From positions 1-54,083 of the forward strand of contig VFJJ01000176.1 of NCBI GenBank assembly GCA_009886115.1: DNA of 54,083 bases. Direction: 5' to 3'. Of the stretch, positions 9,990-48,728 are shown in pieces. Both the position numbers and the translations under genes were made by a program. Every line of letters begins with the position of its first letter. Position 1 is the stretch's first letter. The notes under the pieces are model-generated. The model worked only from the letters and a program-made list of their open reading frames with translations. It had not been told where the DNA came from and ran no database searches. Origin of the DNA: Actinomycetota bacterium (GTDB lineage: Bacteria; Actinomycetota; Acidimicrobiia; IMCC26256; VFJJ01).

Positions 9990-9998
9990 CGTGCAGAC

Positions 9999-10028
9999 AG
10001 ACGCACCCGGCGAGGTCCGCGGGTGACA
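9999..10028 (-). promoter_or_regulatory. candidate ECF-dependent autoregulatory promoter
   Basis: Minus strand TGTCACC...CGTCT about 10 nt upstream of the sigma ATG, resembling the CAAC/CGTC class of actinobacterial ECF promoters. Confidence 0.45.
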
Positions 10029-10121
10029 CGAGTCCCGCGGACGCCGCCGATCGCGCTGGCGGCGTTGCCGGGCACACCGAGCCCGAGCAACCGCCCGATC
10101 ATCATCGGAGCACGACCGCCC

Positions 10122-11267
10122 TCATGTCTGCCGTCTCTGACGAGTCAGCCAGGCCTCACGCTGACGGACGGTCGATACCACGGGATCGGTGTCGTACTTG
10201 GGGATCACGTGCTTGCCGTAGGTCTCGACGGCCTCGATGGCGATCTCGACGGGCATGGTGGTCGAGAGCATCCCGAACACGAGCTGGTCGGCGCCGGCAT
10301 CGGCGTAGCCCTGGGTGGCCTTGTCGCACTCCTCGGGGGTCCCCACGATCACGTGACCGGCGGCGATACGCGCTTCCATCTCGGCCGGCGTCGGCTCGGG
10401 AATGAGGTCGGGCCACACTGGGGCGCCTGCGGGCTTGGGAAACGTGTCGAGATAGCGGAACACGAGGCTGTTCTGGTAGCCCGATGTCATATTGCACGCG
10501 ATGTCACGCGCTTTCTGTCCGTCTTCCAAGCACAGCATCTGGCTCGTGACCATGATGTTGTTGTTGATGTAAGCCCCGGCCGGGTTATCGCACTTCTCGA
10601 TCTCGGTCTTATATGTCTCAATCAGCGGCTTGAGCGACTCGGGCGTACCCATGGTGAAGCAGAGGATCCCGATGCCCATCTGAGCGGCCTTCTTGAACGT
10701 TCCCGGCGAACCCGCGGCAACCCACAGCGGTGGGTGCGGCTTGGTGTAGGGCTTGGGCAGCACATTACGGGGCGGCATGGAGAAATACTTACCGTTATAG
10801 CTGTAGTCGGTGGAGCCCCACATGTCCTTGAACTGATAGACGACCTCGTCGAACATATTACGAGTTTCCTCGGGATCCTCGATGCCGAAACCGCGCTGCT
10901 CGAGGGTCGACGATCCCCGGCCCATACCGAGCTCGAAGCGGCCCTTGGAGAGGTGATCGAGCATGGCGACCCTCTCGGCGATCCGGGCGGGATGGTTGAC
11001 GGGCGGGGTGATGTTGAAGATGCCCGTCCCCAGGTGCATGCGCTCGGTCTTGGCCGCCAGGTAGCCGAGGAACGACTCGTTGGCCGACAGGTGCGAGTAC
11101 TCGTCGAGGAAGTGGTGCTCGGTGGCCCATGTGTACTTGAACCCGTTGCGGTCGGCGGCAATCGTGTACTCGAGCTCGTCCATCAGACGGAGGTGCTCGG
11201 CCTGTTCGCCGTTGCGCTCGCGCAGGTGCTTGGGCAGGTACAAGCTGTTGAAGACTCCGAACTCCAT
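10122..11267 (-). CDS. LLM class flavin-dependent oxidoreductase
   Basis: MEFGVF start after GAGGAG; WATEHHF, NHPARIAERVAMLDHLSKGRFELGMGRG, PKPYTKPHPPLWVAA. Confidence 0.92.
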   Translation of the reverse strand: MEFGVFNSLYLPKHLRERNGEQAEHLRLMDELEYTIAADRNGFKYTWATEHHFLDEYSHLSANESFLGYLAAKTERMHLGTGIFNITPPVNHPARIAERVAMLDHLSKGRFELGMGRGSSTLEQRGFGIEDPEETRNMFDEVVYQFKDMWGSTDYSYNGKYFSMPPRNVLPKPYTKPHPPLWVAAGSPGTFKKAAQMGIGILCFTMGTPESLKPLIETYKTEIEKCDNPAGAYINNNIMVTSQMLCLEDGQKARDIACNMTSGYQNSLVFRYLDTFPKPAGAPVWPDLIPEPTPAEMEARIAAGHVIVGTPEECDKATQGYADAGADQLVFGMLSTTMPVEIAIEAVETYGKHVIPKYDTDPVVSTVRQREAWLTRQRRQT

Positions 11268-11328
11268 GGGTGCGTGCTCCTCGGGGTGGGACGGGGGACG
11301 GGCGGGCGTACCAGGGTCGCGGCGGCCG

Positions 11329-11345
11329 TCTGACACTGTGTCAGA
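11329..11345. promoter_or_regulatory. 17-bp palindrome, candidate repressor operator
   Basis: TCTGACAC-T-GTGTCAGA between the divergent LLM and EamA genes. Confidence 0.55.
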
Positions 11346-11384
11346 GTCCCCGTCCCCACACCAAGAAGGCGGACCGTCAACCTG

Positions 11385-12371
11385 ATGACCGTCCTGCATC
11401 GCCCCCGCCCAATCGACATGGTGCTGCTCGTGATCGCCGTGACCGGCGTGTCGACATCGGCGCCGGTGATCCGGGAGGCCGCAGCGCCGGCGCTGGCCCT
11501 GGCCATGTGGCGCAACCTGCTGGGCGCGGCCGTCGTGGTGCCGGTGGCGCTGAGCACCCGGCGACGGCGAGACGCGCTGCGGGCCATGTCATCGCGCGAC
11601 AGGCGCCTTGCCGTCGCCGCCGGAGCCTTGCTGGGACTGCATTTCGCGCTGTGGATACCGTCGCTCTCGTATACCTCGGTGGCGTCGTCGGTGGCGCTCG
11701 TCGCCACGCAGCCCGTCTGGTCGGCGCTCATCGCCCACCTGCGCGGCGAGAACGTGAGCCGAGGGGCGTGGACGGGCATCCTCGTCGCCGTGGCCGGAGC
11801 CTTCGTCCTGTCGGGCTTCGATCTGTCGCTCTCGCGCCGGGCCCTCGGCGGCGACGCCCTGGCGTTACTGGGCGCGATCTGTGCCGCGGCCTACGTGGCC
11901 GTCGGAGCGCAGGCCCGCCAGACGCTCAGCACCACGAGCTACACGGCCGTCTGCTACAGCGTCGCGGCTGCGGGCCTGTTCGTCGCATGCCTCGTCGGCG
12001 ACGTGCAGCTCAGCGGTTTCTCGGCCCGCACGTGGTGGTGCATCGTGGCGCTCACCGTGGGCGCGCAGCTCCTCGGGCATTCGATCTTCAACCGGGTGCT
12101 GGCGACCACCTCGGCCACGGTTGTGTCGGTGTCGATCCTGGGTGAGGCCATCGGCGGGACGGTGCTGGCCTGGATCTGGTTCTCCGAGGCCCCGTCACGC
12201 GGGTTCTGGCCCGCCGCTGCGCTCATCTTCACGGGCGTCGTCCTCGTCGTCCGAGCCGGCCGGACGGCCGAGGGGGCCGGTGCCGGTGCGCTGGCACCCA
12301 GAAGTCTTCCGCCATCACCAACCCCGATACGAGCCCCTGCCGACGATCGCCCGGCCAAGGAGGAACAGTGA
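11385..12371 (+). CDS. DMT/EamA family transporter
   Basis: About 10 TMs; LGLHFALWIPSLSYTSVASSVALVATQP, GDALALLGA, QLLGHSIFN. Confidence 0.9.
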   Translation: MTVLHRPRPIDMVLLVIAVTGVSTSAPVIREAAAPALALAMWRNLLGAAVVVPVALSTRRRRDALRAMSSRDRRLAVAAGALLGLHFALWIPSLSYTSVASSVALVATQPVWSALIAHLRGENVSRGAWTGILVAVAGAFVLSGFDLSLSRRALGGDALALLGAICAAAYVAVGAQARQTLSTTSYTAVCYSVAAAGLFVACLVGDVQLSGFSARTWWCIVALTVGAQLLGHSIFNRVLATTSATVVSVSILGEAIGGTVLAWIWFSEAPSRGFWPAAALIFTGVVLVVRAGRTAEGAGAGALAPRSLPPSPTPIRAPADDRPAKEEQ

Positions 12372-12563
12372 CATCACAGATAGCGGTCAACGTGGCGGCG
12401 GCCAGTCCCGCCGAGCCTGATCCCCGAGTTGCGAAGCGAACGGGGCTGGGCCGAGGCGCGAGGCCCGGCAATCACCACGATCGTCGATCTGGTCGGGGAC
12501 CGGTTCACGCTCGACGAGACCCAGCGCGCCAAGCAGCCCGACTGGACCTACGCCACTGACTGA
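12368..12563 (+). pseudogene. degenerate gene remnant of unknown family (frameshift or internal deletion)
   Basis: Strong RBS (AAGGAGG) and GTGA coupling to the EamA stop, but the coding-like tail LIPELRSERGW...IVDLVGDRFTLDETQRAKQPDWTYATD* (stop 12561-12563) is in a different frame. Confidence 0.45.
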
Positions 12564-12647
12564 GGGGACCGTGGGTCGTCACTTGTAACGTGGACGGGAC
12601 GCGTGCGCCTGAGCGCACGGAGCGCAGGAGGGCACGGGCGAGTGGCG

Positions 12648-13610
12648 GTGAGCGACACGGCGACGATGGGCACGCCATCGTGCACCGACCCGGTGGCGCT
12701 GCACGAGTGGTATCCGATCAGCGCGCTCGTCGAGATCACACCGGGCCTCGTACATCGCACACAACTCCTCGGCGGCGCCATCAGCTACACCCGCACGCCA
12801 GGCGGCAGCCGCCCTGTGGTGTGGCCGTCGGGAGGCGAGGCCAGCGGAGCCGAAGTCGACGGTTTGGCCGTCGATCATCAGCTACCCGTGCGGGTGAAGT
12901 TCGGATACGTCTGGACGACGCTGGGCCGGCCCGAGCACGAGCTGTTCGACATCGCCGAGTGCGATGAGGCCGATCGCCGGATCCAGAACGGCGGCAGCAT
13001 CATGGTGGCCACGTCGGCGCCCCGGGCCATCGAGAACTTCCTCGACATGGGCCACTTCCCGTATGTGCACACGGGAATCCTCGGTGCCGAGCCCCGCACC
13101 GAGGTGCTCGAGTACGACGTCGAGGTCACCGACGAGGAGATCCTCGCCACACGCTGCCTGTTCTTCCAGCCCCAAGCGGCGCTCAGCGCCAGCGACGGGC
13201 AGATGACCGAGTACGTGTACCGGGTGCCGCACCCGTACTGCGTGATGCTCTACAAGTCGGTCCCGACCGACGCCAGCCGCATGGACGTGATCGCCCTGTT
13301 CTGCCAGCCGATGACCGAGGAGCGGGTGCGGGCCCACAACTTCTTGTGCATGGTCGACGCCGTCAACTCCGACACCGCGCTGAAACGCTTCCAGCAGCTC
13401 ATCTTCGGCCAGGACAAGCCCATCCTCGAGAACCAGTCGCCCAGGCGGCTCCCCCTCGACCCCCGGGCCGAGACGCCGATCAGGGCCGACAAGAGCTCGA
13501 TCAGCTATCGCCGTTGGCTGAGCGCCAAGGGCCTGACCTACGCCGTCATCCCAGCGACCGCCCCGTCCCCCACGCCCGCTCCCACGCCCGCTCCGACGCG
13601 GTCGAGCTGA
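12648..13610 (+). CDS. ndmC: Rieske-less non-heme iron oxygenase, NdmC-like methylxanthine N7-demethylase subunit
   Basis: Mononuclear Fe motif RAIENFLDMGHFPYVH and FQQLIFGQD...RLPLDPRAETPIRAD present, no CxH/CxxH Rieske ligands; resembles Pseudomonas NdmC as recalled; start uncertain (12642/12648/12666). Confidence 0.8.
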   Translation: MSDTATMGTPSCTDPVALHEWYPISALVEITPGLVHRTQLLGGAISYTRTPGGSRPVVWPSGGEASGAEVDGLAVDHQLPVRVKFGYVWTTLGRPEHELFDIAECDEADRRIQNGGSIMVATSAPRAIENFLDMGHFPYVHTGILGAEPRTEVLEYDVEVTDEEILATRCLFFQPQAALSASDGQMTEYVYRVPHPYCVMLYKSVPTDASRMDVIALFCQPMTEERVRAHNFLCMVDAVNSDTALKRFQQLIFGQDKPILENQSPRRLPLDPRAETPIRADKSSISYRRWLSAKGLTYAVIPATAPSPTPAPTPAPTRSS

Positions 13611-13621
13611 GCCGGACCGGA

Positions 13622-15505
13622 GTGGAACCCGACCCGAGCACCTCCTGGTATCCGGTCGCCCGAAGCGACGATCTCCCGCTGCGCCATGTGTTCCAAGGGG
13701 AACTGCTGGGCCGCGAGCTGGCGATCTGGCGGGCCGACGACGGGTTCGTGAACGTCTGGGAGAACCGGTGCCTGCACCGTGGGGTCCGACTGTCGATCGG
13801 GTTGAACGAGGGCCGTGAGCTCCGGTGCCAGTACCACGGATGGCGATATGCCAACCGCACGGCTGGCTGCACGTACATCCCCGCGCATCCGGCCGACGCG
13901 CCAGCACGCGTCATCTGCAACGTGACCTTTCCCGCAGTCGAGCGCTACGGCCTGGTTTGGACCTGCGACTCGCCGGGCGGCGTGGCTCCGGGCGACGGGC
14001 CGCCGGTGCTGGCCGCGCTCGAAGCGGCGGCTCCCCTCGGTTTGCGCAACCTGCCCGTCAACGCCGAGCCGTCCACCGTGCTCGACGAGCTCGCGGCGTA
14101 CGCCTTTGTTCCCACCGGGCTGCTGGCCCAACGCACCGCCCACGACCGCCCGGTCGCCGGCTCCGCGACTCTGGGTACGGAGGAACTCGGCGCGGAGGTG
14201 AGCGTCACCGATCGAGGTCACTCGTGGATCGAGCTCACCGCCCGGATGGGTGAAGCCGCGAGCAGGGTGGTGCTGTTCGTACAGCCCGTCGACTCGGCCC
14301 GTTCGGTCGTCCGGGGCGTCCTGGCCGGCGGTGCCGACGGTGCCGACGGTGCCGACGGTGCCGGCGTGCACTCTCCTGAACGCGACCAGATGGCCGTGCT
14401 GCGCCATCATCACCGCGAGCTCTCACGGCTACGAGACGCGATCGAGGATCGAGCGGCGAGACGGCCCTCCCCCGTCCCGATGACACCCCGCCTCCAACAG
14501 GTGCGGCTGCGCCCCGCAGAATCCGCTCTTGAGCACGATCGGCGTGACGGCGGGCGCCGGACGGGGCTGCGGGTCAGCGTGGCTCGGCGCTGGGACACCG
14601 CCGACGCAATCGTGGCCTTCGAGCTCCGTCAGCTCGACGGGCTGCTCCCGACACCCCGGCCCGGTGCTCACATCGACGTGGAGCTCCCCAACGGGTTGGT
14701 CCGGCAATATTCGCTCGTCAACGGTCCGGGAGAAACGGACCGTTACCTCATCGGTGTGAAGCGCGAGCCCGCCTCGCGCGGCGGATCGGCTTGCCTGCAC
14801 GACACGGTGATCGTCGGTGACGTGCTCGCCATCTCAGAGCCCCGCAACAACTTCCCGCTCCGGCGCGACTCCTTCCGCACGATCCTTATCGCCGGCGGGA
14901 TCGGCATCACGCCATTGCTCTCGATGGCCCAGGCGCTGCACTGGAGCGGCCACACCTACGAGCTCCACTACTTCGCGCAATCGGCCGGGCACGTGGCGTT
15001 CACGGAGATCCTCGATTCACTCGGGCCGGACGTCACGACCCATCTCGGCCTCGACCCGTCGGGGACGGGGTCCGTGCTCACGCGATTACTGTCCGACCCC
15101 GAGGACGGCGGCCACGTGTACGTCTGCGGCCCCGGGCCGATGCTCGACGCCACCAGGAACACGGCCACGACTGCGGGTTGGCCCGACCATGCCGTGCACT
15201 TCGAGTACTTCACCAACGCCACGGAGATCGACTCCAGCTCCAGCTTCGAGGTCGAGTTGGCCCGCAGCGCGCTGACGCTGCCCGTTCCCGCGGGATCGTC
15301 GATCATGGACGTGTTGCGCGCCAACGGCGTAGCCGTGGCGTCGTCGTGCGAGCAGGGCGCCTGCGGAACCTGCCTGACGGCGGTGATCGCGGGCGAGCCC
15401 GACCACCAGGACGTGTATCTCAACGCATCCGAGCGTCGAGCCGGCGACCGGATGGCCATCTGCGTCTCCCGATCACGCTCGCCTCGGCTCGTGCTCGACA
15501 TCTGA
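13622..15505 (+). CDS. ndmD: Rieske domain fused to PDR/VanB-type reductase, NdmD-like
   Basis: N-terminal WENRCLHRG...CQYHGW; RQYSL (FMN), AGGIGITP and CGPGPM (NAD), CEQGACGTC...C (plant-type 2Fe-2S). Confidence 0.85.
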   Translation: MEPDPSTSWYPVARSDDLPLRHVFQGELLGRELAIWRADDGFVNVWENRCLHRGVRLSIGLNEGRELRCQYHGWRYANRTAGCTYIPAHPADAPARVICNVTFPAVERYGLVWTCDSPGGVAPGDGPPVLAALEAAAPLGLRNLPVNAEPSTVLDELAAYAFVPTGLLAQRTAHDRPVAGSATLGTEELGAEVSVTDRGHSWIELTARMGEAASRVVLFVQPVDSARSVVRGVLAGGADGADGADGAGVHSPERDQMAVLRHHHRELSRLRDAIEDRAARRPSPVPMTPRLQQVRLRPAESALEHDRRDGGRRTGLRVSVARRWDTADAIVAFELRQLDGLLPTPRPGAHIDVELPNGLVRQYSLVNGPGETDRYLIGVKREPASRGGSACLHDTVIVGDVLAISEPRNNFPLRRDSFRTILIAGGIGITPLLSMAQALHWSGHTYELHYFAQSAGHVAFTEILDSLGPDVTTHLGLDPSGTGSVLTRLLSDPEDGGHVYVCGPGPMLDATRNTATTAGWPDHAVHFEYFTNATEIDSSSSFEVELARSALTLPVPAGSSIMDVLRANGVAVASSCEQGACGTCLTAVIAGEPDHQDVYLNASERRAGDRMAICVSRSRSPRLVLDI

Positions 15506-15524
15506 TCTCGCGGGAGCCCCGACC

Positions 15525-16214
15525 ATGATGAAGATCTACGACTACGAGCTGTCGGTGAACTGCTACAAGCAGCGACTGTTGCTGGGGATCCTCGGGGTGC
15601 CCTACGAGTCGATTCCCGTCGATTTCTTTCCCGGCTGGGAGCACAAGGGCGAGGCGTTCGCCGAGATCAACCCGCTCGGCCACATTCCCGTCATCGACGA
15701 CGACGGCTACATCCTGCGCGATGCGCAGGCCATCCTCGTGTATCTGGCGCTGCGTTACGACCCGAGTGGCCTGTGGTATCCCGTGACCGATCCCCGGGTT
15801 GCCGGTGAGGTGGCCTCGTGGATGGCCTTCGCCGAGGGCACCACCAACACCGCGTCGGCCGCCCGTCTGCACGACACGCTGGGCTACCCGTTCGACATCG
15901 ACACCGTGAGAGCCGGAGCGCAGAAGCTGTTCCGGGTGCTCGACGACCACGTGTGGTTCCACGAGCAGCAGGAGCGTCCGTGGGTGGCGTCAGCGCCCCA
16001 TCCCACCATCGCCGACCTGGCCCTGTTCCCCGACGTGATGCTCTCCGAGCAGGGCGGCATCAGCCTGCTCGACTACCCGGCCCTGCGTCGCTGGACCGAT
16101 CGGGTCAAGCACATCCCGGGCTTCACGGTGATGTCGGGGATCTTCCCGGCCCCCGCCGGCGCAGCCCCCGCCGGCGCAGCCCCCGGCGGCGCGACCGTTG
16201 GGCGCCCGCGATGA
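15525..16214 (+). CDS. ndmE: glutathione S-transferase-like protein, NdmE-like
   Basis: YDYELSVNCYK, INPLGHIPV, LRDAQAILVYLA, SAARLHD, PTIADLA, RRWTDRVK; directly follows the ndmD-like gene. Confidence 0.82.
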   Translation: MMKIYDYELSVNCYKQRLLLGILGVPYESIPVDFFPGWEHKGEAFAEINPLGHIPVIDDDGYILRDAQAILVYLALRYDPSGLWYPVTDPRVAGEVASWMAFAEGTTNTASAARLHDTLGYPFDIDTVRAGAQKLFRVLDDHVWFHEQQERPWVASAPHPTIADLALFPDVMLSEQGGISLLDYPALRRWTDRVKHIPGFTVMSGIFPAPAGAAPAGAAPGGATVGRPR

Positions 16215-17317
16215 CCGTCGACGAGTGGTTCCCCGTGGCGGCTGACGATCCGGCGACCACCGACGACGCAGCCCCGGATCCGATCGCCGACGAGTGGTTC
16301 CCCGTGGCGACAGCCACGGAGGTGACGCCGGGGACGGTCCATCCGTTCCAGCTGCTCGACGAACGGTACGTGCTCCTCGCCGCCAACGACGCCAACGACG
16401 CCAGCGTGACCGTGGTGCGCGACACCTGTCCCCACCGGGGCGCCCAGCTCAGCCTGGGGCGCTTCGACGGCGATCGCCTCGAGTGCGCGTATCACGGATG
16501 GCAGTTCGACACCTCGGGACGCTGCCGGCACCAACCGGCCCATCCCGATGCCACGCCGTCCGAGGCTTCCAACCTCAGGCCGGTGCGGGTGAGCCGGGCC
16601 TACGACCTGTACTGGGTCTGCCTGGGCGACGAGCCCCGCAACCTGCCGTACTACCCGGCCTTTCACCTCCACCCCGGCCGCACCACGATCTGCGCGCCCA
16701 AGCGGGTGCGAACGTCGGGCCCGCGCATCGTCGAGAACTTCCTCGACATGGCCCACTTCCCGTTCGTGCACGGGGGTTACCTGGGGACGGCGCCCCACAC
16801 CGAGGTCCGCGACCACGAGATCGCCAGCGTCGACGGGGAGCTGAGGGCCATCAATTGCACCTTTTGGCAGCCCCAGCCCGGTCCCGGCGCCGGCCAGGGT
16901 GGCGACGTGGAGTACACCTACGGCGTCTCGCACCCGTACGCCGCCAGGCTGGTGAAGATCCCGAGCGAGGCCGACGGGGGCGCCGCCGAGGCTTTCGAGA
17001 TCCTTCTGGCCGTGAGCCCGGAGTCGGAGCTGTCGTGCCGGGCCTGGATGCTCACGACTGCGCACAGCCCGTCGGCCGATCTCGATTCCTTCAACGAGTT
17101 CGGCGCGCTGATCTTCGGCCAGGACGTCGCAGTCGTCGAGTCCCAACGCCCGGCGCGACTCCCCCTCGACCCCCGGGCCGAGCAGCACCAACGAGCCGAC
17201 CGGACGAGCCTGGCCTACCGCCGCTGGCTCGTCGCCCGAGGCATCCGCTACGGCACGTCCCGCAACGAGCCGGAGCGCGGCGGGACGGGCCCGACGGGTT
17301 CGGCTCGCAAGCCGTGA
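16211..17317 (+). CDS. Rieske non-heme iron oxygenase (VanA/Ndm family)
   Basis: CPHRG...CAYHGW Rieske ligands; ENFLDMAHFPFVH; IFGQD; ATGA overlap with the GST stop. Confidence 0.88.
   Translation: MTVDEWFPVAADDPATTDDAAPDPIADEWFPVATATEVTPGTVHPFQLLDERYVLLAANDANDASVTVVRDTCPHRGAQLSLGRFDGDRLECAYHGWQFDTSGRCRHQPAHPDATPSEASNLRPVRVSRAYDLYWVCLGDEPRNLPYYPAFHLHPGRTTICAPKRVRTSGPRIVENFLDMAHFPFVHGGYLGTAPHTEVRDHEIASVDGELRAINCTFWQPQPGPGAGQGGDVEYTYGVSHPYAARLVKIPSEADGGAAEAFEILLAVSPESELSCRAWMLTTAHSPSADLDSFNEFGALIFGQDVAVVESQRPARLPLDPRAEQHQRADRTSLAYRRWLVARGIRYGTSRNEPERGGTGPTGSARKP
16219..16309 (+). repeat. 22-bp in-frame direct repeat duplicating DEWFPVA
   Basis: CGACGAGTGGTTCCCCGTGGCG at 16219-16240 and 16288-16309 (69-bp spacing). 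Confidence 0.85.
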
Positions 17318-17405
17318 GCGGTCAGGTGCCCGTCAGGCAGCGGCAACGGCCGGTTCATCGCCTGCGTGCGGGACGTGCCCGACGACCCACGTAGATTTCC
17401 CGGTT

Positions 17406-18542
17406 ATGACCCATGTGAACCTTCCCAAGCGGCGCCGCGTGCTGAGTGCGCTGGCGCTGGTCCTGTCGATCTCGCTGCTGGCCGCGGCCTGCGGCGACGA
17501 CGACGACGACGACGCCACCTCGACCGAAGCTCCCACCGACACCACCGCAGCGGCCGCCACCGACACGACCGCAGCCGCGGATCCGGCGACGGCCACCACC
17601 GAGGCTGCAGCGGCGGCTCCCGCCAACTCCGACGCCCCCAAGCTGGCGATCGTCTACTCGGCCGACTGGCTCGATGGGTCGTGGGGCCAGGCGGCGTTCG
17701 ACGGGGCCAACGGCCTCCTCGAGTCTGGCGTGATCTCCGACCTGCTGCTGCAGGAAAACGTGCCGCCGGGCGCCGAGGCGCAGCGTGCACTGCGGGCTGC
17801 TGCCGAGGACGGCTTCAACCCGATCATCGCCCACTCGTTCGACTACGGCGACGACGTGAAGGCAGTGGCCGCCGACTTCCCCGAGACGATCTTCGTGTAC
17901 GCCGGGGGCTTCGGCGACGTGGCCGCCAACGTGGGCGACTACGACCAGCCCTTCTACCAGGCGTCGTACCTGTCGGGCATCCTGGCGGCCGGCGTGCAGG
18001 GCGAAGGCAACGTCGCCGGAGCCGGCGGCTTCGAGATCCCCGCCTGCTACTCGATGTACGAGGCCTACCTGGCTGGTGCCCAGGCGGTGCTGCCCGACAC
18101 GACCGGCAGCTTCGTGGCCGTGGGCGACTGGTACGACGTGCAGCTGGCCAAGGAAGCCGCGCTCGGTCAGCAGGCCGACGGCGCCACGATGTTCGTGGGC
18201 TGCGGTCAGGGCCCGACGTTCGGCCAGATCGAGGCCGCCAACGACACCGACGGAGTCTCGACGGGCTACGTCGGCGACATGGCCGAAGTGGGCCCGTCGG
18301 TCGTGTCGTCGTTCATCTGGCGCCTCGACAAGGTCTTCGAGCTGATCGTGGCCGACGTGGCCGCGGGCAAGACCGAGGCGCAGTACTACTCAGTGCCACT
18401 CGCCGCCGGCGGTATGGATCTGGTCATCTCCGATGCCTGGGCCGACCAGATCCCGGCCGACACCTTGGCCCTGTTCGAAGAGCGCCTGGCGGCCATCCAG
18501 GACGGAAGCTTCGAGGTTCCCTTCGTTCCCGAGGCTGGGTGA
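17406..18542 (+). CDS. BMP/PnrA family ABC substrate-binding lipoprotein (purine nucleoside type)
   Basis: Lipobox LAAAC; DGSWGQAAFDG, IIAHSFDYG, VAADFPET, YQASYLSGILA, GDWYD. Confidence 0.88.
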   Translation: MTHVNLPKRRRVLSALALVLSISLLAAACGDDDDDDATSTEAPTDTTAAAATDTTAAADPATATTEAAAAAPANSDAPKLAIVYSADWLDGSWGQAAFDGANGLLESGVISDLLLQENVPPGAEAQRALRAAAEDGFNPIIAHSFDYGDDVKAVAADFPETIFVYAGGFGDVAANVGDYDQPFYQASYLSGILAAGVQGEGNVAGAGGFEIPACYSMYEAYLAGAQAVLPDTTGSFVAVGDWYDVQLAKEAALGQQADGATMFVGCGQGPTFGQIEAANDTDGVSTGYVGDMAEVGPSVVSSFIWRLDKVFELIVADVAAGKTEAQYYSVPLAAGGMDLVISDAWADQIPADTLALFEERLAAIQDGSFEVPFVPEAG

Positions 18543-18565
18543 TCTCAACCTCACACCATCCCGAT

Positions 18566-18605
18566 CCTTCGGGCAGGGCGGGCCCGTGCTCGCCCTGCCC
18601 GAAGG
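18566..18605 (+). terminator. 15-bp stem-loop after the substrate-binding protein gene (terminator or mRNA stabiliser)
   Basis: CCTTCGGGCAGGGCG / CGCCCTGCCCGAAGG exact reverse complements. Confidence 0.7.
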
Positions 18606-18670
18606 TTGCCGGTCGGTCGTGAGGTGGCAGAGACTTCCGAGATGCCATGTGTATGGGGGGCCCGAGCCTG

Positions 18671-20194
18671 ATGAGGAGCGAGGCCCTCGTCGAGATGCGG
18701 GGCATCCACCGGCGCTTCGGTGAGACCCACGCGCTGGCGGGGGTCGATCTTTGCCTGCGCGCCGGGGAGATCCATGCGCTGCTCGGCTCCAACGGGGCGG
18801 GCAAGACCACGCTGGTGCGGATCCTCGCCGGGCTCGACCGTCCCGACGAGGGCACCGTCACCGTGCTCGGAGAACCCGTCACCAAGTTCGAGCCCAAGGT
18901 GCTCCGGGCGGCCGGCGTCGCCCTCGTGCAGCAGCACTTCACGCTGGTCCCCACGCTGTGCGCATCGGAGAACCTGGTGCTGGCTCGACCCGACGGCTGG
19001 CGCGTGCCCCGTCAACGCTCCGCACGCGCCCGTCTGGGGGCACTCGTCGAACGGACCGGGCTGACGGTACGCGACGACGTTCCGGCCGGCGCGCTCTCGG
19101 TCGGAGAGCAGCAACGCCTGGAGCTGCTGCGGGCCCTCGACGCCGACGCCCGGGTGCTCCTGCTCGACGAGCCGACCGCGGTCCTCACCGATCAGGAAGC
19201 CGAGGCGCTGCTCGCGGTGTGCCGCACGCTGGCGGCCGAGGGACGGGCGCTGGCGTTCATCACGCACCGGCTGGGCGAGGTCTTCGCCGGCGCCGACCGC
19301 GTGACCGTGCTGGCCGAGGGCAGGGAAGTACTGAGCGACGAGCTCGTGACGCAGCACGACCGAGCCGGACTGGCCAGTGCGATGATCGGCCACCAGAGCT
19401 CGGGCGCGTTCACCCATCGGGGCGGACGGGCCGGCGATCGCGCCGCCGGACGCCTCGTGGTCTCGGGCCTGCGCCTCGGACGCTTGCACGGCCTCGACAT
19501 CTCCGTCGCCAGCGGCGAGATCGTCGGCGTCGCCGGCGTCGACGGCAACGGCCAGGCCGACCTCGAGGCTGCGCTCTCGGCCCGGGTGGCGCCGGAGTCC
19601 GGGACCGTCGCCGTCGACGGTGCGGTGCTCGAGCCCGGCGACCCGCGCGGTCGGCGCACCCGGGGCTTGGCGTACATCCCGTCCGACCGCTACCAGTGGG
19701 GACTCATCCGGGCCATGGACCTGGCCGACAACCTGGAGCTGGGCCGGGTTCCCCGGTGGCGGGCTCGACGCTCGCAGCGGCGGGCGGCGAGCGCACCGAG
19801 CCTCGGTCACTGGGACGTTCGCACGAGCGGACCGGCGGCCCGCGCCGCCACGCTGTCGGGGGGCAACGCCCAGAAGCTGGTGCTGGCCCGGGAGCTCGAC
19901 GGGCGTCCCCGGGCCGTGCTGGCGTGCTACCCCACTCGGGGTCTCGACCCGACGGCGGCCGACACGGTCGCGGCCCGGCTCGTGGCCTGCGCCGACGACG
20001 GCGCCGGCGTGTTGTGGATCGGCGCCGAGCTCGACGAGCTGCTGGCCGTGGCCGACCGCATCGTCGTGCTCGCAGGCGGACGTCTGCTGGGACCGTTCTT
20101 CGCCCCGTACGACCGTGCCGCCATCGGCCTGGCCATGGCCGGCGTGCACGACGGCGAGGCCCTCCAACCTGTCGAGGCGGTAGGCGACCGATGA
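18671..20194 (+). CDS. CUT2/NupA-type ABC ATP-binding protein (two NBDs)
   Basis: GSNGAGKT, LSVGEQQR, LLDEPT; second domain GVDGNGQ, LSGGNAQK, PTRGLD. Confidence 0.92.
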   Translation: MRSEALVEMRGIHRRFGETHALAGVDLCLRAGEIHALLGSNGAGKTTLVRILAGLDRPDEGTVTVLGEPVTKFEPKVLRAAGVALVQQHFTLVPTLCASENLVLARPDGWRVPRQRSARARLGALVERTGLTVRDDVPAGALSVGEQQRLELLRALDADARVLLLDEPTAVLTDQEAEALLAVCRTLAAEGRALAFITHRLGEVFAGADRVTVLAEGREVLSDELVTQHDRAGLASAMIGHQSSGAFTHRGGRAGDRAAGRLVVSGLRLGRLHGLDISVASGEIVGVAGVDGNGQADLEAALSARVAPESGTVAVDGAVLEPGDPRGRRTRGLAYIPSDRYQWGLIRAMDLADNLELGRVPRWRARRSQRRAASAPSLGHWDVRTSGPAARAATLSGGNAQKLVLARELDGRPRAVLACYPTRGLDPTAADTVAARLVACADDGAGVLWIGAELDELLAVADRIVVLAGGRLLGPFFAPYDRAAIGLAMAGVHDGEALQPVEAVGDR

Positions 20195-21324
20195 CCGTCG
20201 AGACGGCCGCGACCCGATCAACCACGCCCGGCGCGAGCTCGGGCTCGGGCCCCGGCTCGGGCCCCGGCTTCGCGGCCCGTGTCGCCGAGCGGGCCGGTGC
20301 CGGCGGCCCCGTCGTCTCGATCCTGATCCCCGTGCTCGCGGTCGTCGCGGCGCTGGCGGTGGGTGGGGTGCTCATCGCCTTCGACGGCTCGAACCCGCTG
20401 TCGGTGTACCGCGAGATCGTCAGCGCTGTGCTCACGGGGAACCGTGGGTTCTCCGATACGGCGACCGCAGCCACGCCGCTCATCCTCATCGGCCTCGGTT
20501 ACGCAATCGCCTACCGGGCCCGGGTCTTCACCATCGGCGGCGAGGGCCAGTACCTCATCGGTGCGCTGGCCGGCACCGCCTGGGTCACCGGAGCGGGACT
20601 TCGCGACCTGCCCCGCTGGCCGCTCATCCTCAGCGGCGTCGTGGTCGCCACGCTCGCCGGTGCTGCCTGGAGCGGTCTGGCCGGATGGCTGGGCGTGCGC
20701 TTCGGTGCCAACGTCGTGATCTCCAGCCTGATGCTCGTCTACATCGCCGACTCGGCGCTGGCCTGGGGAGTGCGAGACGGCATTCGCGACCCCGAGTCGT
20801 TCGTGAACCAGAGCCGCCAGATCGGCCGGGCCAGCCTGCCCGAGCTGCCGGGCACGACCACCCACATCGGCTTCGCCATCGCCATCGCCATCGTGCCCTT
20901 GGCGGCAGTGCTGATGGCCCGGCACCGCGGCGGGTTCCGCATCACGGCGTACGGCCACAACCCGAGCGCTCTCGACGCCAACGAGGTCTCCAACCGCACG
21001 GTGATCATCCTCGTGATGGTGATCGCCGGGGCGCTGGCCGGCCTGGCGGGCATCGTCGAGACGACCGGCGTGAACGGACGGCTGGGCGCCCAGGCGTCGG
21101 TCGGCTTCGGGTTCCAGGCCATCATCGTGGCCCTGCTCGGACGGCTCAACCCGGTGGGGGTGGGCATCGCCGGACTGGGTATGGCCGGCTTGACGATCGG
21201 GTTCGAGTCGGCCCAGCGCGAGTTCGACCTGCCGTCGTCGTTGGTGGGCGTGATCACCGCGCTGATCGTGGTGTTCGTGGTGGTCGGCGACGCGCTGGCC
21301 GGTCGAGCCCGGGGAGATCGGTAG
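20191..21324 (+). CDS. nucleoside ABC transporter permease (NupB-like)
   Basis: ATPLILIGLG, FTIGGEGQY, GANVVISSLML, GFQAIIVALLGRLNP; ATGA coupled. Confidence 0.9.
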   Translation: MTVETAATRSTTPGASSGSGPGSGPGFAARVAERAGAGGPVVSILIPVLAVVAALAVGGVLIAFDGSNPLSVYREIVSAVLTGNRGFSDTATAATPLILIGLGYAIAYRARVFTIGGEGQYLIGALAGTAWVTGAGLRDLPRWPLILSGVVVATLAGAAWSGLAGWLGVRFGANVVISSLMLVYIADSALAWGVRDGIRDPESFVNQSRQIGRASLPELPGTTTHIGFAIAIAIVPLAAVLMARHRGGFRITAYGHNPSALDANEVSNRTVIILVMVIAGALAGLAGIVETTGVNGRLGAQASVGFGFQAIIVALLGRLNPVGVGIAGLGMAGLTIGFESAQREFDLPSSLVGVITALIVVFVVVGDALAGRARGDR

Positions 21325-21326
21325 CC

Positions 21327-22196
21327 GTGGACGTCATCTTCAAGCTGGCGACCCTGGAGGCGGCGATCCGCCTGGGCGTCCCCGTGGCCCTGGCCGCGCT
21401 CGGCGCACTGGTGTCGGAGCGGACGGGTGTGCTCAACCTCGGCCTCGAGGGGATGATGCTCTCGGGCGCCCTCGGCGGCTACGCAGCCAACGAAGCGACG
21501 GGCTCGGCCTGGCTCGGCGTGCTCGCGGGCACGCTCATCGGTGCTGGGTGCGGAGCCATCCTGGCCCTGCTGGTGGTCACCGCCCGCGCCAACCAGGTCG
21601 TCACCGGGATCGCGTTCACGCTGCTCGCCCTGTCGGCCACCACCTACCTGTTCCAGCTCCGGTACTCGATCGGCGGCATCCCGCCCCGGGTCAACCGGCT
21701 CGACATGACGCCGCTGGTGCTGTTGACCCTCGCCTGTGTTGCCGCACTGTGGTTCCTGTTCAACCGCACCACCCTCGGGTTGGCGATGGGTGCGGTCGGT
21801 GAGGCTCCCGAAGCCGCCGATGCCTTGGGGTACAAGGTCGAGCGGCTGCGCTGGATCGCCACCATGATCGGCGGCGGTCTGGCCGGCCTCGGCGGCGCTG
21901 CACTCGTGTGCGGCCCGCTCGGACTGTTCATCGAGAACGTCACCGCCGGGCGTGGATGGGTGGCCCTGGCGCTGGTGGTGTTCGCCGGCTGGAAGCCCGG
22001 CGCAGCCGTGGCCGGAGCGATCCTGTTCGGCCTGTGCGACGCCGTGCAGCTGCGCCTGCAGGGCACCGCCACCGATGTGCCCTATGAGGCATTCCTCGCG
22101 CTGCCCTATGTCGTGACGCTGGTGGCGCTGGTACTCCGGGCCCGAGCCAGCCGCACCCCGGCCGCCCTCGGCGTGCCCTACGTGCGCGGCATGTGA
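21327..22196 (+). CDS. nucleoside ABC transporter permease (NupC-like)
   Basis: SERTGVLNLGLEGMML, ANQVVTG, AGRGWVALALVVF, LPYVVT, PAALGVPY. Confidence 0.92.
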   Translation: MDVIFKLATLEAAIRLGVPVALAALGALVSERTGVLNLGLEGMMLSGALGGYAANEATGSAWLGVLAGTLIGAGCGAILALLVVTARANQVVTGIAFTLLALSATTYLFQLRYSIGGIPPRVNRLDMTPLVLLTLACVAALWFLFNRTTLGLAMGAVGEAPEAADALGYKVERLRWIATMIGGGLAGLGGAALVCGPLGLFIENVTAGRGWVALALVVFAGWKPGAAVAGAILFGLCDAVQLRLQGTATDVPYEAFLALPYVVTLVALVLRARASRTPAALGVPYVRGM

Positions 22197-22274
22197 GCGA
22201 AGTTCCACGCCCGGCCGGCAGCGCCCCTCAGCGCTCGAGACTCAGGGTGATCGCCCGAAGCGGAGCGAGACACG

Positions 22275-23381
22275 TCACCGATCGCTTCGGGCGGTCCCGG
22301 TAGCGCCTGCAGCCACGGCCACGGCAGCGGCAACGGCAGCGGCGAGGTCGGCGAGGACGCGGCGCATCTCCAGGGTGATGCGGTCGGCCTTGGTGTGGAT
22401 CTCGGCCGTGGGATCGAGCGGTACGCCCTTGCGGTGCATGCGTTCGAGCAACGCCTGGTCCTCGACGGCTACGGCGAGCTGGAAATCGACGGCGCCCTGA
22501 CGAGCCTCGACGGTGTCGGCGATGTCGTTGCGGTAGTCGGTGCAGTACAGGCGCGTCGTGGTGGCGTTCACGGGCTGGTGGCAGAAGCTGATCGTGAGCA
22601 CGGCGTTCTCGGCCCGGTACTCGATGCGCAGGTACACGTGATGGGGCGGGGTGAACACGAACAGGTCGTGCCGGTCGACGAGCGCGAACTCCTCACCTGC
22701 GCCGTGCGAATCGGCCAACGCCTTGGTGGTGTGGGTGTGGCGCACCTCGAATCGCCAACCGTCCCGGTCGATCCGGTAGTCGGGCACGATCCGGTCGTCC
22801 AACGCGCCGAAGGTGGCGAGGTGCAGGTACGGGAAGTGGCCCTGGTCGAGAAAGTTGTCGGCCATCTGCGCCGCGCTGGCGTTCCAGTCGAGCACCGGTA
22901 AGGGGCAGTTGACGAACGTCGGATCGTCGTGCTCGGGCACGTGCGGAAGCCCGACGAGCGGCTCATCGAGCGCCAGCCACACGAGCCCCAGATGGTCGAT
23001 CGCACCGTGGGCCGGTCGGCACGAGGCCCGAGACGGGATGGGCGCCGTGGGCCCGATGGCCGGGATCTCGACGCAACGGCCGGTGGCGTCGAAGCGGTAA
23101 CCGTGGTAGCCGCATTCGAGGGTGCCATCGACGATACGGCCGGCCGACAACGGCGTGAACCGGTGCGGGCAACGGTCGGGGAACGCCGCCAGCACCCCGT
23201 CGAGCCGCACCACGCACCATCGTTCGCCGAGGAGCTCGACACCGACAGGCCCGTCCGCCACGTCCTCGCTGCGGGCCACCGGATGCCAACAGCGCCGCAA
23301 CGCCGGATGCTCGTTGGTGAACCAACGCTCGTCTCCGGAACGCGCGGTGAGACGATCGGCGGGGACGTTCTTCGGGGCCAT
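22275..23381 (-). CDS. Rieske non-heme iron oxygenase (NdmA/NdmB/VanA-like)
   Basis: WHPVA, CPHR...CGYHG, DNFLDQGHFPYLH, PLDPTAEIHTKAD; ATG at 23381. Confidence 0.88.
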   Translation of the reverse strand: MAPKNVPADRLTARSGDERWFTNEHPALRRCWHPVARSEDVADGPVGVELLGERWCVVRLDGVLAAFPDRCPHRFTPLSAGRIVDGTLECGYHGYRFDATGRCVEIPAIGPTAPIPSRASCRPAHGAIDHLGLVWLALDEPLVGLPHVPEHDDPTFVNCPLPVLDWNASAAQMADNFLDQGHFPYLHLATFGALDDRIVPDYRIDRDGWRFEVRHTHTTKALADSHGAGEEFALVDRHDLFVFTPPHHVYLRIEYRAENAVLTISFCHQPVNATTTRLYCTDYRNDIADTVEARQGAVDFQLAVAVEDQALLERMHRKGVPLDPTAEIHTKADRITLEMRRVLADLAAAVAAAVAVAAGATGTARSDR

Positions 23382-23466
23382 GGCACCATTCTGCTGCCGA
23401 CGGCGCCGATCGTGTGCGCTCGTCCACGCTGGGCGTCGACGGGCGCGCGTGTGGTCGAATGGCGTC

Positions 23467-24315
23467 ATGTTCATCTCGATGGTGGTTCCCCCCGACGATG
23501 CCGACCACGACGATGCGATCTGGTTCGTGGTGCGCAACAACGAGCTCCTCGTGGTCGTCGAGGAAGGGCGGCGCGAGGTCGATGTTCCCGGCACTGTCGG
23601 CGTCAAAGGCAGCGTCGAGCACGACGAGCCGCACTTCCTCGGGATGCTGGCGGGCCGGCCGGTCTGGGCGGCCGGCGTGCCGCACGACCACGCGGCGCCG
23701 GCAACTCCTGCACCCGGAGGCGGGCACTCGTACGAGAACCTCCGGGGCCTGTGGGGACGGGTGCCCGAGCCGTTGTACGGCTTGGCCGGGCGGGCCGTGC
23801 AGATCGTGGAGTGGGACCGAACCCACCGCTTCTGCGGCCGCTGCGGCGAGCCGACGGTGTTGGCCACCCCCGAGCGGGCCCGCAAGTGCCCCCGCTGTTC
23901 GCTGCTGTGCTTCCCCCGCTTGGCCCCGGCCACGATCATGCTCGTCGAACGGGGCGAGCGGGGCGAGGAGTGCCTGCTGGCATGGGGCCGGCAGTTCCCG
24001 ATGCGCATGTTCTCGTGCCTGGCCGGGTTCGTGGAGCCCGGAGAGTCGCTCGAGGAGTGCGTGCGCCGGGAGGTCAAGGAGGAAGTGGGTATCGAGCTCG
24101 ACGAGGTCACCTACTTCGGATCACAGCCCTGGCCCTTCCCCCACCAGCTCATGATCGGCTTCACGGCGACCTGGGCCGGCGGCGAGCTTGAGCTCGACCC
24201 GGTCGAGATCGTCGAGGCCGGGTGGTTCCGGGCCGACGACCTTCCTCCCCATCCGCCGGCCGGGATGAGCATCGCCGGCTCGCTCGTCGAATCCTGGAAG
24301 GCCCGACAGTCGTAG
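23467..24315 (+). CDS. nudC: NAD(H) diphosphatase NudC
   Basis: Zn-ribbon FCGRCG...CPRC, Nudix box GFVEPGESLEECVRREVKEEVG, SQPWPFP. Confidence 0.92.
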   Translation: MFISMVVPPDDADHDDAIWFVVRNNELLVVVEEGRREVDVPGTVGVKGSVEHDEPHFLGMLAGRPVWAAGVPHDHAAPATPAPGGGHSYENLRGLWGRVPEPLYGLAGRAVQIVEWDRTHRFCGRCGEPTVLATPERARKCPRCSLLCFPRLAPATIMLVERGERGEECLLAWGRQFPMRMFSCLAGFVEPGESLEECVRREVKEEVGIELDEVTYFGSQPWPFPHQLMIGFTATWAGGELELDPVEIVEAGWFRADDLPPHPPAGMSIAGSLVESWKARQS

Positions 24316-24348
24316 CGGCCGGGTCGCGCGTCAGAACTCGGACGGAGC

Positions 24349-25026
24349 TCAGACGATACGGCGTTCGGTGGCCCAGATCGTGAGCTCGTGGCGTGACGAG
24401 AGCTGGAGCTTGCGCAGCACCGCCGACACGTGGGTCTCGATGGTCTTCACCGACACGTGCAGCCGGGCTGCCACCTCTTTGTAGGTGTAGCCCCGGGCGA
24501 TGTGGCGCAACACGTCCTTCTCCCGAGGCGTGAGCTGGTCGAGCTCGGGATCGGGGACGATCGGCAACACCGTCGAGAAGGCGTCGAGCACGAAGCCCGC
24601 CAGCCGGGGCGAGAACACGGCGTCGCCGCTGCTGACCCGACGGATGGCATCGACGAGCTCGTCGGGTGCGATCGTCTTGGTCACGTAACCGCGGGCGCCG
24701 GCCCGGATGACGGCGATGACGTCCTCGGCGGCATCGGAAACCGAGAGCGCGAGGAACTTCACGTCGGGATGGGAGTCGCGGAGCGCGTCGATGACTGCGA
24801 TCCCGCCGCCGCCCGGCAGGTGCACGTCGAGCAGCACCACCTCCGGCGCCGTGGCCCGGATGCCGTCGACGGCGCCGGCCACGTCCTCGGCTTCGCCGAC
24901 CACGGTGACCTGAGCGCCGATCTCGGCTCGCACACCCGACCGGAACAGCCGATGGTCGTCGACGATGAACACCCGCACGACCCGGCCGCTCGTTCCACCC
25001 GTCCCACCCGTCCCGCTCCCGGTCAT
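24349..25026 (-). CDS. NarL/LuxR family response regulator
   Basis: VDDH, LLDVHLP, GARGYVTK; LTPREKDVL...KTIETHVSAVLRKL. Confidence 0.95.
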   Translation of the reverse strand: MTGSGTGGTGGTSGRVVRVFIVDDHRLFRSGVRAEIGAQVTVVGEAEDVAGAVDGIRATAPEVVLLDVHLPGGGGIAVIDALRDSHPDVKFLALSVSDAAEDVIAVIRAGARGYVTKTIAPDELVDAIRRVSSGDAVFSPRLAGFVLDAFSTVLPIVPDPELDQLTPREKDVLRHIARGYTYKEVAARLHVSVKTIETHVSAVLRKLQLSSRHELTIWATERRIV

Positions 25027-26279: not shown

Positions 26280-26316
26280 CGGTCACAAGCGTCGCGCGTC
26301 GCGGGTCGAATGACCA

Positions 26317-26376
26317 TCAGGGATGACCCTGAGACGCGGCCGGAGTCTCAGGGTCATCGCCGGGATGCCCCCGATG
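26317..26376. promoter_or_regulatory. palindromic sites in the divergent promoter region, likely response-regulator binding sites
   Basis: TCAGGG-ATGA-CCCTGA (26317-26332) overlapping a 14-bp inverted repeat GATGACCCTGAGAC/GTCTCAGGGTCATC (26322-26358). Confidence 0.6.
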
Positions 26377-26409
26377 GTTCGGGGCGTGGAGAAGGCGCAT
26401 GCTGGAGCC

Positions 26410-37125: not shown

Positions 37126-37146
37126 GAACGGCCTGAGAACGCAACC

Positions 37147-48341: not shown

Positions 48342-48728
48342 GTGGTAGAGCCTCTCATTCAGATTGGACGGGTCCCGGCGGCCAGGGCGGCGGCAAGAGA
48401 GCCGTCGTCTTTGCTGCACCGTTCGGGTGCCAACAACATTCGTTCCGGTGTGACCGCTACGAATTCGCCGGTTCGATCATGAGGCCATCATCGAGTGCCG
48501 CTACCTGGAAAGCAATGGCGAAAACCAGACGAATATCCCACCGCAGACTGCCGAGATCAGGAGCGCGTGGAGGTCTGGGAGGAGGAGGCTGTGGCCGGCG
48601 TCGATCGCGCCGCCTCGAACGTCTCGCTGGTGGCGGCGAGACCACGGCGGGCGTGACGGCGACCGAGCGCTCGATCCTGTCGTTGCGGTCGTACCAACCG
48701 ATCGCCCGTTCGATGGTTCCGGAGCGCC

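Follow-up and report, generated by a model that had tools for sequence, protein, structure and literature searches.

A Rieske-less oxygenase, a Rieske-reductase and a GST-like protein encoded with a BMP-type importer in an Acidimicrobiia-like contig: a candidate system for uptake and oxidation of methylated purine bases

What does a bacterium take up and oxidise with an operon that joins a Rieske oxygenase without a Rieske motif to a reductase with an additional Rieske domain? This question is raised by a locus on contig VFJJ01000176.1 (assembly GCA_009886115.1, Actinomycetota bacterium), a stretch of 54,083 nucleotides that was analysed as a whole and is called the window here. Its core genes encode C, a Rieske-less oxygenase subunit; D, a reductase with an N-terminal Rieske domain; and E, a glutathione S-transferase (GST)-like protein. 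They are accompanied by two complete Rieske oxygenases, RO1 and RO2, and by an ATP-binding cassette (ABC) importer with a BMP-type binding protein. An earlier note, made from the sequence alone, had read this locus as a methylated-purine uptake and demethylation system modelled on NdmCDE, which an excerpt of a review describes as the 7-methylxanthine N7-demethylase of Pseudomonas putida CBB5 (Summers et al. 2013, described in PMC4408171). Our analysis establishes, by full-length sequence homology, that C, D and E belong to the NdmC/D/E family, and it favours the uptake and oxidation of an N-heterocyclic base, for which a methylated purine base is the likeliest candidate, a reading to which we assign a probability of roughly 55%.

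To characterize the core proteins, we compared their motifs, alignments and predicted folds. C keeps the NxxDxxHxxxxH iron motif (NFLDMGHFPYVH at residue 132) and has no CxH..CxxH Rieske motif; in its alignment with RO1 (34% identity) both Rieske Cys/His pairs are missing from C. The same holds throughout the C family, where the iron motif is present in 57 of 57 sequences and the Rieske motif in 0 of 57. The N-termini of D and its homologues carry the opposite set: the Rieske motif in 27 of 27 and the iron motif in 0 of 27, with the Rieske ligands of D itself intact at residue 50. Reading from its N-terminus, D has a Rieske domain, a shrunken remnant of an oxygenase catalytic domain that lacks the iron site, a PDR-type flavin/NAD module and, at its C-terminus, a plant-type [2Fe-2S] ferredoxin; its PDB matches include 2pia (1.3e-60) and the ferredoxin of NdmD (6icm_D, 2.6e-20). 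The ferredoxin domain was considered as an NdmD-specific marker and rejected, as 6icm_D scored 75.3 bits and generic PDR-type reductases 74-78 bits.

About 200 residues between the Rieske domain and the reductase of D match no Pfam model. A model of the N-terminal 315 residues, built from 27 homologues (predicted local distance difference test score, pLDDT, 84.9), aligned with whole SxtT/GxtA alpha subunits over 304-336 columns at a template modelling (TM) score of ~0.6, and hhalign matched the same region to the C family with 98.2% probability (E 3e-14) over 172 columns, extending into the catalytic domain. For C, whose model has a pLDDT of 91.0, the fold agrees with whole SxtT/GxtA chains at TM 0.76-0.79 and with NdmA at TM 0.65-0.67; because entire SxtT/GxtA chains are matched, the model indicates that C keeps a Rieske-fold N-terminal domain without a cluster. 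C and the N-terminal half of D may therefore be read as homologous oxygenase alpha subunits with complementary losses, the iron site being kept in one and the Rieske cluster in the other. SxtT and GxtA (SxtDIOX; PDB 6wn3, 6wnc), Rieske hydroxylases of the cyanobacterial saxitoxin biosynthetic pathway, are the best solved sequence or fold matches of C, RO1, RO2 and the D N-terminus; unlike the window genes they stand in an unrelated genomic context, and the fold alignments run at 20-24% identity.

E has its best PDB match in 3m3m (5.8e-20), and its family is strongly conserved, with a mean column identity of 58% over 47 sequences. In alpha3 Rieske oxygenases, the iron of each subunit receives its electrons from the Rieske cluster of the subunit next to it; by analogy, we infer that C and the N-terminal part of D would assemble as such neighbours, with E as a putative scaffold. 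This agrees with the scaffold-type role already proposed for NdmE in an excerpt of the review (PMC4408171). A different build is seen in Rhizobium-type loci (L068-L075, L079, L080; e.g., L069:4056-4718, minus strand), where the D equivalent is a stand-alone protein of ~220 amino acids with the Rieske domain and the catalytic remnant, encoded next to the GST gene with no fused reductase, so the reductase fusion is not universal in the family.

We then asked how close the three proteins are to the Ndm enzymes. As a reference standing in for CBB5 NdmC and NdmE, we used a cluster on plasmid p1 of Paraburkholderia caffeinilytica CF1 (H91), identified by a tblastn search of plasmids with C. It holds two full oxygenases, a GntR regulator, C, D, E, S-(hydroxymethyl)glutathione dehydrogenase (frmA) and S-formylglutathione hydrolase (fghA), with BMP-type ABC genes and a nucleobase symporter nearby. 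Because the adjoining oxygenases match the solved NdmB and NdmA with 688.6 and 649.2 bits, respectively, the C, D and E of p1 were taken as NdmC, NdmD and NdmE orthologues. Against these, the window proteins are 44% (C; 290 amino acids, 7e-85), 38% (D, colinear; 632 amino acids, 7e-137) and 54% (E; 209 amino acids, 1e-86) identical over their full length, and the gene order C-D-E is that of CBB5, so that the three-part architecture recognised in the earlier note is borne out as homology. A PDB search with C returned no NdmC chain among its matches. In the deposited p1 record (L084:11992-14628), the NdmC-like and NdmD-like genes are shortened to 227 and 464 amino acids; the open frames, with GTG/TTG starts, run to 283 and 591, and the Rieske part of D is hidden in the deposited annotation, which names the shortened NdmD-like gene 'PDR/VanB family oxidoreductase'.

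Family membership is one matter and orthology another. In a FastTree phylogeny, all Rieske-less proteins form one clade (support 100), within which the P. caffeinilytica NdmC orthologue pairs with a protein of a P. putida Tik1 plasmid (support 100). Window C lies in a separate subclade of 55 rows, together with proteins of Acidimicrobiia and Devosia and the second Sinorhizobium meliloti copy (C2), at support 90. C is thus placed in a different subclade and is not established as an NdmC orthologue.

RO1 and RO2 share a broad clade with NdmA and NdmB (PDB 6ick, 6icl), and like them they are complete Rieske oxygenases of the alpha-only type whose genes lie close to that of an NdmD-type reductase; their identity to NdmA/NdmB is only roughly 30%. 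In PDB searches, RO1 scored 154 bits to SxtT, 119.6 bits to NdmA and 99.8 bits to NdmB, and RO2 scored 110 bits to SxtDIOX, 106.4 bits to NdmA and 87.3 bits to NdmB; judged by these scores, they are not NdmA/B orthologues, and the equation of the locus with NdmC and the caffeine enzymes did not hold for either the Rieske-less or the complete oxygenases. In the tree, RO1 is sister to the whole Rieske-less clade (support 96) with NdmA and NdmB branching further out, and RO2 is provisionally placed near HpxD at the base. Homologues of RO1 at 55-56% identity adjoin C in two related loci (L034 and L052), and a homologue of RO2 at 62-64% identity sits within an oxygenase-deaminase-C-D-E operon of a third (L061). 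RO1 probably draws its electrons from D, a reductase that, as in the CBB5 Ndm system, probably serves the full Rieske oxygenases nearby too. RO2 could be an N-demethylase or an HpxD-like purine hydroxylase. NdmA/B, HpxD and SxtT/GxtA act on purines or purine-like alkaloids.

The importer is complete by Pfam, with a BMP binder, a tandem-cassette ATPase and two BPD_transp_2 permeases, and, unlike the arrangement in CBB5, it lies in the same operon as C, D and E. The binder starts with an N-terminal lipoprotein signal (lipobox LAAAC) and continues with a long acidic, Thr/Ala-rich linker; its best solved relative, a distant one, is the periplasmic binding protein AtzT of Pseudomonas sp. ADP (6pi5, 2.1e-26). 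According to an excerpt of the AtzT report, that protein co-purified with the base guanine and binds 2-hydroxyatrazine too (PMC6834077). The label 'nucleoside-type', formerly given to this importer, is therefore unsupported, since the best solved relative held a base. In NCBIfam, the ATPase is best matched by ABC_ATP_B6 (368.7 bits, cut-off 670), permease 1 by ABC_B6_perm_2 and permease 2 by ABC_B6_perm_1, both below cut-off.

By its protein relatives, the contig is actinobacterial and Acidimicrobiia-like. The window's Ca-ATPase has top matches at 97% and 85%, followed by proteins of Acidimicrobiales/Acidimicrobiia metagenome-assembled genomes at 63% and, lower, Microthrix and Iamia; these relatives, the lipoprotein signal of the binder and the nearest relatives of C, D, E, RO1 and RO2, which are all Acidimicrobiia, together place the host outside the proteobacteria, as the earlier note had supposed.

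To see what accompanies this gene set elsewhere, we surveyed related loci. Among 8000 candidates scored, 2214 were C relatives at E<=1e-5; C matches 96 protein clusters (50% identity) at E<=1e-30, and a pattern scan of one genome per species found at least 602 stretches, of which at least 595 encode a C relative. Neighbourhoods were counted in the best 80 of these at least 595 species-level stretches, and the counts are lower bounds, several contigs being short. By record title, the 80 loci comprise 29 Actinomycetota, 49 Pseudomonadota, one Eremiobacterota and one unclassified; the first number may be 28, as L077 is titled Rhodococcus sp. JCM 9791 and carries the origin label Chroococcidiopsidaceae/Cyanobacteriota. 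The Actinomycetota include many Acidimicrobiia metagenome-assembled genomes, Nocardioides immobilis, Pseudonocardia sp. MH-G8, Streptomyces cavernicola and Saccharopolyspora elongata, which does not bear out the expectation that such a system is rare outside the proteobacteria. An excerpt of the review reports a BLAST search with ndmCDE (a 2013 finding) that returned homologous clusters labelled function-unknown in 18 further organisms, mainly Sinorhizobium and Mesorhizobium (PMC4408171). The cluster type is already known and widespread, and the actinobacterial copy is not exceptional in databases.

The C-D-E arrangement is not a chance one. A full fused D adjoins E in 49 of the 80 loci, and at least three of the four importer parts are present in 47; the synteny of trio and BMP importer thus recurs across genomes. 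Counting any Rieske part with E, which may include Rieske domains of full oxygenases, gives 62/80 loci, and 40/80 have this pair together with the importer. At least one full oxygenase is present in 18/80 loci (12/29 in Actinomycetota), and two or three C paralogues in 14/80.

The neighbours point to purines and one-carbon (C1) units. Any purine gene is found in 27/80 loci, any C1 gene in 17/80, and one or the other in 41/80. On the purine side, an 8-oxoguanine deaminase model is matched above cut-off in 15 loci and an adenosine deaminase model above cut-off in 10, with an adenine-deaminase-like protein below cut-off in 9 and a xanthine permease fused to 2-oxo-4-hydroxy-4-carboxy-5-ureidoimidazoline (OHCU) decarboxylase in 4, all of them Actinomycetes. 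The C1 genes encode S-(hydroxymethyl)glutathione dehydrogenase (FrmA; 9 loci), S-formylglutathione hydrolase (FrmB; 3), a GcvT-like protein (6) and serine hydroxymethyltransferase (SHMT; 4); GntR regulators occur in 13 loci. In the three loci closest to the window in layout (L034, L052, L061), an adenosine-deaminase-family gene lies between the full oxygenase and C, with an 8-oxoguanine-deaminase-like gene nearby. On the P. putida Tik1 plasmid, C-D-E is joined with hpxO, an HpxD-like oxygenase and a nucleobase symporter, and on S. meliloti pSymA a GntR gene, a BMP ABC importer, two C genes, D and GST lie ~3 kb from xanthine dehydrogenase (XDH)-family genes. At the level of the family, these neighbourhoods support a purine link.

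The rhizobial clusters resemble the window, whose C shares 58-60% identity with proteins of Sinorhizobium, Mesorhizobium and Aminobacter; they differ in that they have two or three C paralogues and lack a full Rieske oxygenase, where the window has one C and two full oxygenases. In the rhizobial loci L013, L066 and L067 and on S. meliloti pSymA (L081:13095-14906), the two or three C paralogues share one D and one E, and one pSymA record matches C in five places; such paralogy suggests multiple substrates or methyl positions served by one electron-transfer pair. A plasmid of the acetic acid bacterium Komagataeibacter nataicola from a kombucha tea culture (H99) also carries a C-like gene (50% identity, 75% query cover), and for this tea-fermentation plasmid a methylxanthine link is possible.

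The purine and C1 genes of related loci, the Tik1 and pSymA contexts and the guanine held by AtzT therefore favour imported methylated purine bases and a demethylation that releases formaldehyde. From these pieces we infer a C-D-E complex, an electron path, an N-demethylation chemistry and a purine substrate, as follows. The lipoprotein binder and its ABC transporter would import the compound. D would pass electrons from NAD(P)H through its flavin and C-terminal ferredoxin cluster to the Rieske clusters of RO1 and RO2, and its own N-terminal Rieske domain would supply the cluster-less C, seated beside the N-terminal half of D as adjacent subunits are in alpha3 Rieske oxygenases, with the GST-like E as scaffold. 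Each oxygenase would hydroxylate an N-methyl group, which would leave as formaldehyde; alternatively, RO2 would hydroxylate the purine ring. The demethylated purine would then enter salvage or catabolism encoded elsewhere in the genome.

Several observations weigh against this reading. The window has no XDH, FrmA, FrmB, GcvT, SHMT, purine deaminase or uricase-pathway gene, by tblastn with representatives and by Pfam over 47 open reading frames, the sole exception being a weak AdeC-like stretch at 52592-52969. This confirms the earlier statement that no xanthine dehydrogenase or formaldehyde-disposal gene is present in the window, and support for the purine and demethylation readings accordingly comes from other genomes: the proposed methylpurine substrate is backed by related loci with purine deaminase, xanthine-permease and formaldehyde/C1 genes and finds no such genes in the window itself. 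Among the 80 loci, 39 have no purine or C1 neighbour within 10 kb, several of them being short contigs. The binder shares only 27-30% identity with its counterparts next to the ndm cluster of the plasmid and the S. meliloti cluster, a distance at which their ligands may differ, and the importer's top NCBIfam models are parts of a 'putative B6 ABC transporter', all below cut-off. We found no regulator or riboswitch that would indicate a ligand, and Rfam found no RNA in 9000-25000. As for the oxygenases, C is just 44% identical to the NdmC orthologue and in another subclade, the support of 90 for which falls below the tool's well-supported threshold in a tree of 105 proteins that gives local support only, and RO1 and RO2 reach ~100-120 bits to NdmA/B versus 649-688 bits for true orthologues.

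Some of these points would suit a non-purine substrate, in which case the imported compound would be some other heterocycle or N- or O-methylated molecule, for instance a B6 vitamer, a pterin, a triazine, a cytokinin-like base or a methoxy-aromatic. The lack of purine genes in the window, the 'putative B6' models, the low identity of the binder to those of purine-context loci and the chemical breadth of the VanA_C family all agree with it, as does the binding of 2-hydroxyatrazine by AtzT, the closest solved binder, in the excerpt of its report (PMC6834077). We nevertheless consider such a substrate unlikely: the loci closest in layout and sequence (L034, L052, L061) hold purine deaminase genes inside or beside the operon, and the nearest characterised oxygenases all act on purine-like rings. 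Under this explanation, the purine neighbours seen elsewhere would belong to other subfamilies.

A second alternative keeps the purine and changes the chemistry. HpxDE performs a molybdenum-independent hydroxylation of the xanthine ring, not a demethylation, and the window might encode a comparable route from hypoxanthine or xanthine to urate, replacing the xanthine dehydrogenase absent from it. Like the window system, HpxDE (Klebsiella/Pantoea annotation) combines a Rieske oxygenase with a PDR-type reductase; RO2 and RO1 are 34% and 32% identical to annotated Pantoea HpxD, about as close as to NdmA, and the position of RO2 near HpxD at the base of the tree would fit. The Tik1 plasmid, with its hpxO and HpxD-like oxygenase, and four Actinomycetes loci in which C-D-E adjoins the xanthine permease-OHCU decarboxylase fusion (the fusion coming directly after C-D-E in L038, L049 and L055) point the same way. 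HpxD, however, pairs with a plain reductase and has neither GST nor Rieske-less partner, RO1 and RO2 have no NCBIfam match to an HpxD-type model at E<=1e-5, and the formaldehyde/C1 genes in 17/80 loci and on the ndm plasmid fit demethylation. The sole characterised member of the Rieske-less clade, moreover, is a demethylase according to the review excerpt (PMC4408171), and ring hydroxylation as the main activity appears to us quite improbable.

A genuine caffeine or methylxanthine pathway as in P. putida CBB5, with RO1 and RO2 acting as NdmA and NdmB and C-D-E removing the N7-methyl group of 7-methylxanthine, shares the part list (two full oxygenases, Rieske-less oxygenase, Rieske-reductase and GST), the homology of C, D and E to ndm plasmid genes and the BMP-type ABC genes near that plasmid's cluster, and is very unlikely all the same, given the score gap of RO1 and RO2 to true NdmA/B orthologues, the position of C outside the subclade that unites NdmC with the Tik1 protein, the lack of frmA/fghA and of frmB in the window by tblastn, and a C subclade spanning soil and marine Acidimicrobiia, Devosia and rhizobia, for which a caffeine-specific role seems unlikely.

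The uptake and oxidation of a methylated purine base thus remains our preferred reading of a locus whose layout is given in Table 1. Genes in the window, which has ~70% G+C, were called by third-position GC and then checked with Pfam, and all ten genes that the earlier note had listed are present where it placed them, as open reading frames and by Pfam. No NCBIfam model reached its cut-off for C, D, E, RO1, RO2 or the importer proteins.

Table 1. Genes of the C-D-E locus and its immediate surroundings, in window positions.
Gene or product	Position	Strand	Evidence and remarks
EamA-family carrier	11385-12371	+	Pfam EamA; 270 bp upstream of C
C, Rieske-less oxygenase subunit (NdmC family)	12642-13610	+	Pfam VanA_C only
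D, reductase (NdmD family)	13622-15505	+	Pfam Rieske, NAD_binding_1, Fer2
E, GST-like (NdmE family)	15525-16214	+	Pfam GST_N_3, GST_N_2, GST_N
RO1, complete Rieske oxygenase alpha subunit	16211-17317	+	Rieske and iron motifs
BMP/PnrA-family substrate-binding lipoprotein	17406-18542	+	Pfam Bmp 2.4e-22
ABC importer ATPase, two ATP-binding cassettes	18647-20194	+	Pfam ABC_tran, two stretches
ABC importer permease 1	20191-21324	+	Pfam BPD_transp_2
ABC importer permease 2	21321-22196	+	Pfam BPD_transp_2
RO2, second complete Rieske oxygenase, convergent with the operon	22275-23381	-	Rieske and iron motifs

C starts with GTG, preceded ~10 nucleotides upstream by AGGAGG as read from the sequence; D starts with GTG 11 nucleotides past the C stop, E begins 19 bp after D, and the RO1 start overlaps the E stop by 4 bp. 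Because all genes from C through permease 2 lie on one strand and are separated by no more than 104 bp or overlap by 4 bp, the eight genes C-D-E-RO1-BMP-ATPase-permease-permease (12642-22196) are likely a single operon, judged from spacing. A promoter and terminator scan, ill-suited to high-GC actinobacteria, gave fewer sites (0 promoter-like, 1 terminator-like) than it did in shuffled sequences, and Rfam over the whole window reported one tRNA only. The EamA carrier, formerly counted as a part of the system, is left out here: tblastn at E<=1e-10 gave no homologue of it in the 80 related loci, and its membership is doubtful. Divergent from it lies a luciferase-like (FMN/F420-type) monooxygenase (10122-11399, minus strand), and homologues at 31% identity are found a few kb downstream of the cluster in two of the loci closest in layout (L034:12964-14085, L052:15489-16592); it could be an accessory enzyme or a chance association. 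Downstream of RO2, a divergent gene encodes a NudC-type NAD diphosphatase, the sole protein of the region above an NCBIfam cut-off.

Further from the locus, the window contains other features. Two unusual fused transporter genes occupy 30238-35297 (plus strand): the first encodes a major facilitator superfamily domain followed by an ABC ATPase domain (731 amino acids), the second two BPD_transp_2 stretches and an ABC ATPase with a branched-chain C-terminal motif (955 amino acids), and a Peripla_BP_6 binding protein (28155-29783) is encoded divergently from them. They are followed at 35449-38874 (plus strand) by genes for an Hsp70-family protein (558 amino acids) and a 575-amino-acid protein with no Pfam match. 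The region 42-50 kb has a lower G+C content (0.62-0.68); the window also holds a baeRF_family3 protein (47328-48419, minus strand), the tRNA (48967-49039, minus strand) and an open reading frame (49047-49520) with weak PemK-like and CcdA-like matches. A neocarzinostatin-family domain protein is encoded at 5698-6768 (minus strand). The genes at 24349-27846, for a PspC-domain histidine kinase, a LuxR-type response regulator and a PspC/LiaF-like protein, look like an envelope-stress module typical of Actinomycetota.

Taken by itself, the window is a modest gain: one more Acidimicrobiia member of a cluster type that has been printed as 'function unknown'. To our knowledge, work on GST-partnered split Rieske oxygenases has been confined to the final step by which one Pseudomonas degrades caffeine, and the literature that we searched assigns no function to the non-caffeine clusters, the rhizobial ones included, and contains no Rieske demethylase for methylguanines or methyladenines. 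In the survey, the three-gene core turned up commonly in bacteria from soil and sea, in no fewer than two phyla; usually a BMP-type importer goes with it, and purine deaminases, xanthine permease and formaldehyde/C1 genes are frequent neighbours. Every cell releases methylated purine bases, from tRNA, rRNA, mRNA caps and alkylated DNA. We tentatively suggest, as a possibility that we hold at less than even odds, that bacteria widely scavenge methylated nucleobases from RNA and DNA turnover by such systems, with 7-methylguanine, methyladenines and their deaminated products as candidate substrates and caffeine degradation by NdmCDE as a recent specialisation of an older housekeeping route.

If so, a BMP importer would feed regiospecific oxygenases that share one reductase with a 'half-dead' N-terminal oxygenase half, and this half-dead subunit of D would lend its Rieske cluster to the equally half-dead catalytic partner C; a relative is carried by at least 595 species-level genomes, in Actinomycetota, Pseudomonadota and others. 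Two points seem worth pursuing. One is that, across the family, the core is linked with BMP importers, purine deaminases and C1 genes; the other is complementary degeneration, in which C and the front part of D may represent subunits of a single ancestral oxygenase that decayed in complementary ways. With them, the bacterial fate of methylated purine bases becomes a testable question.

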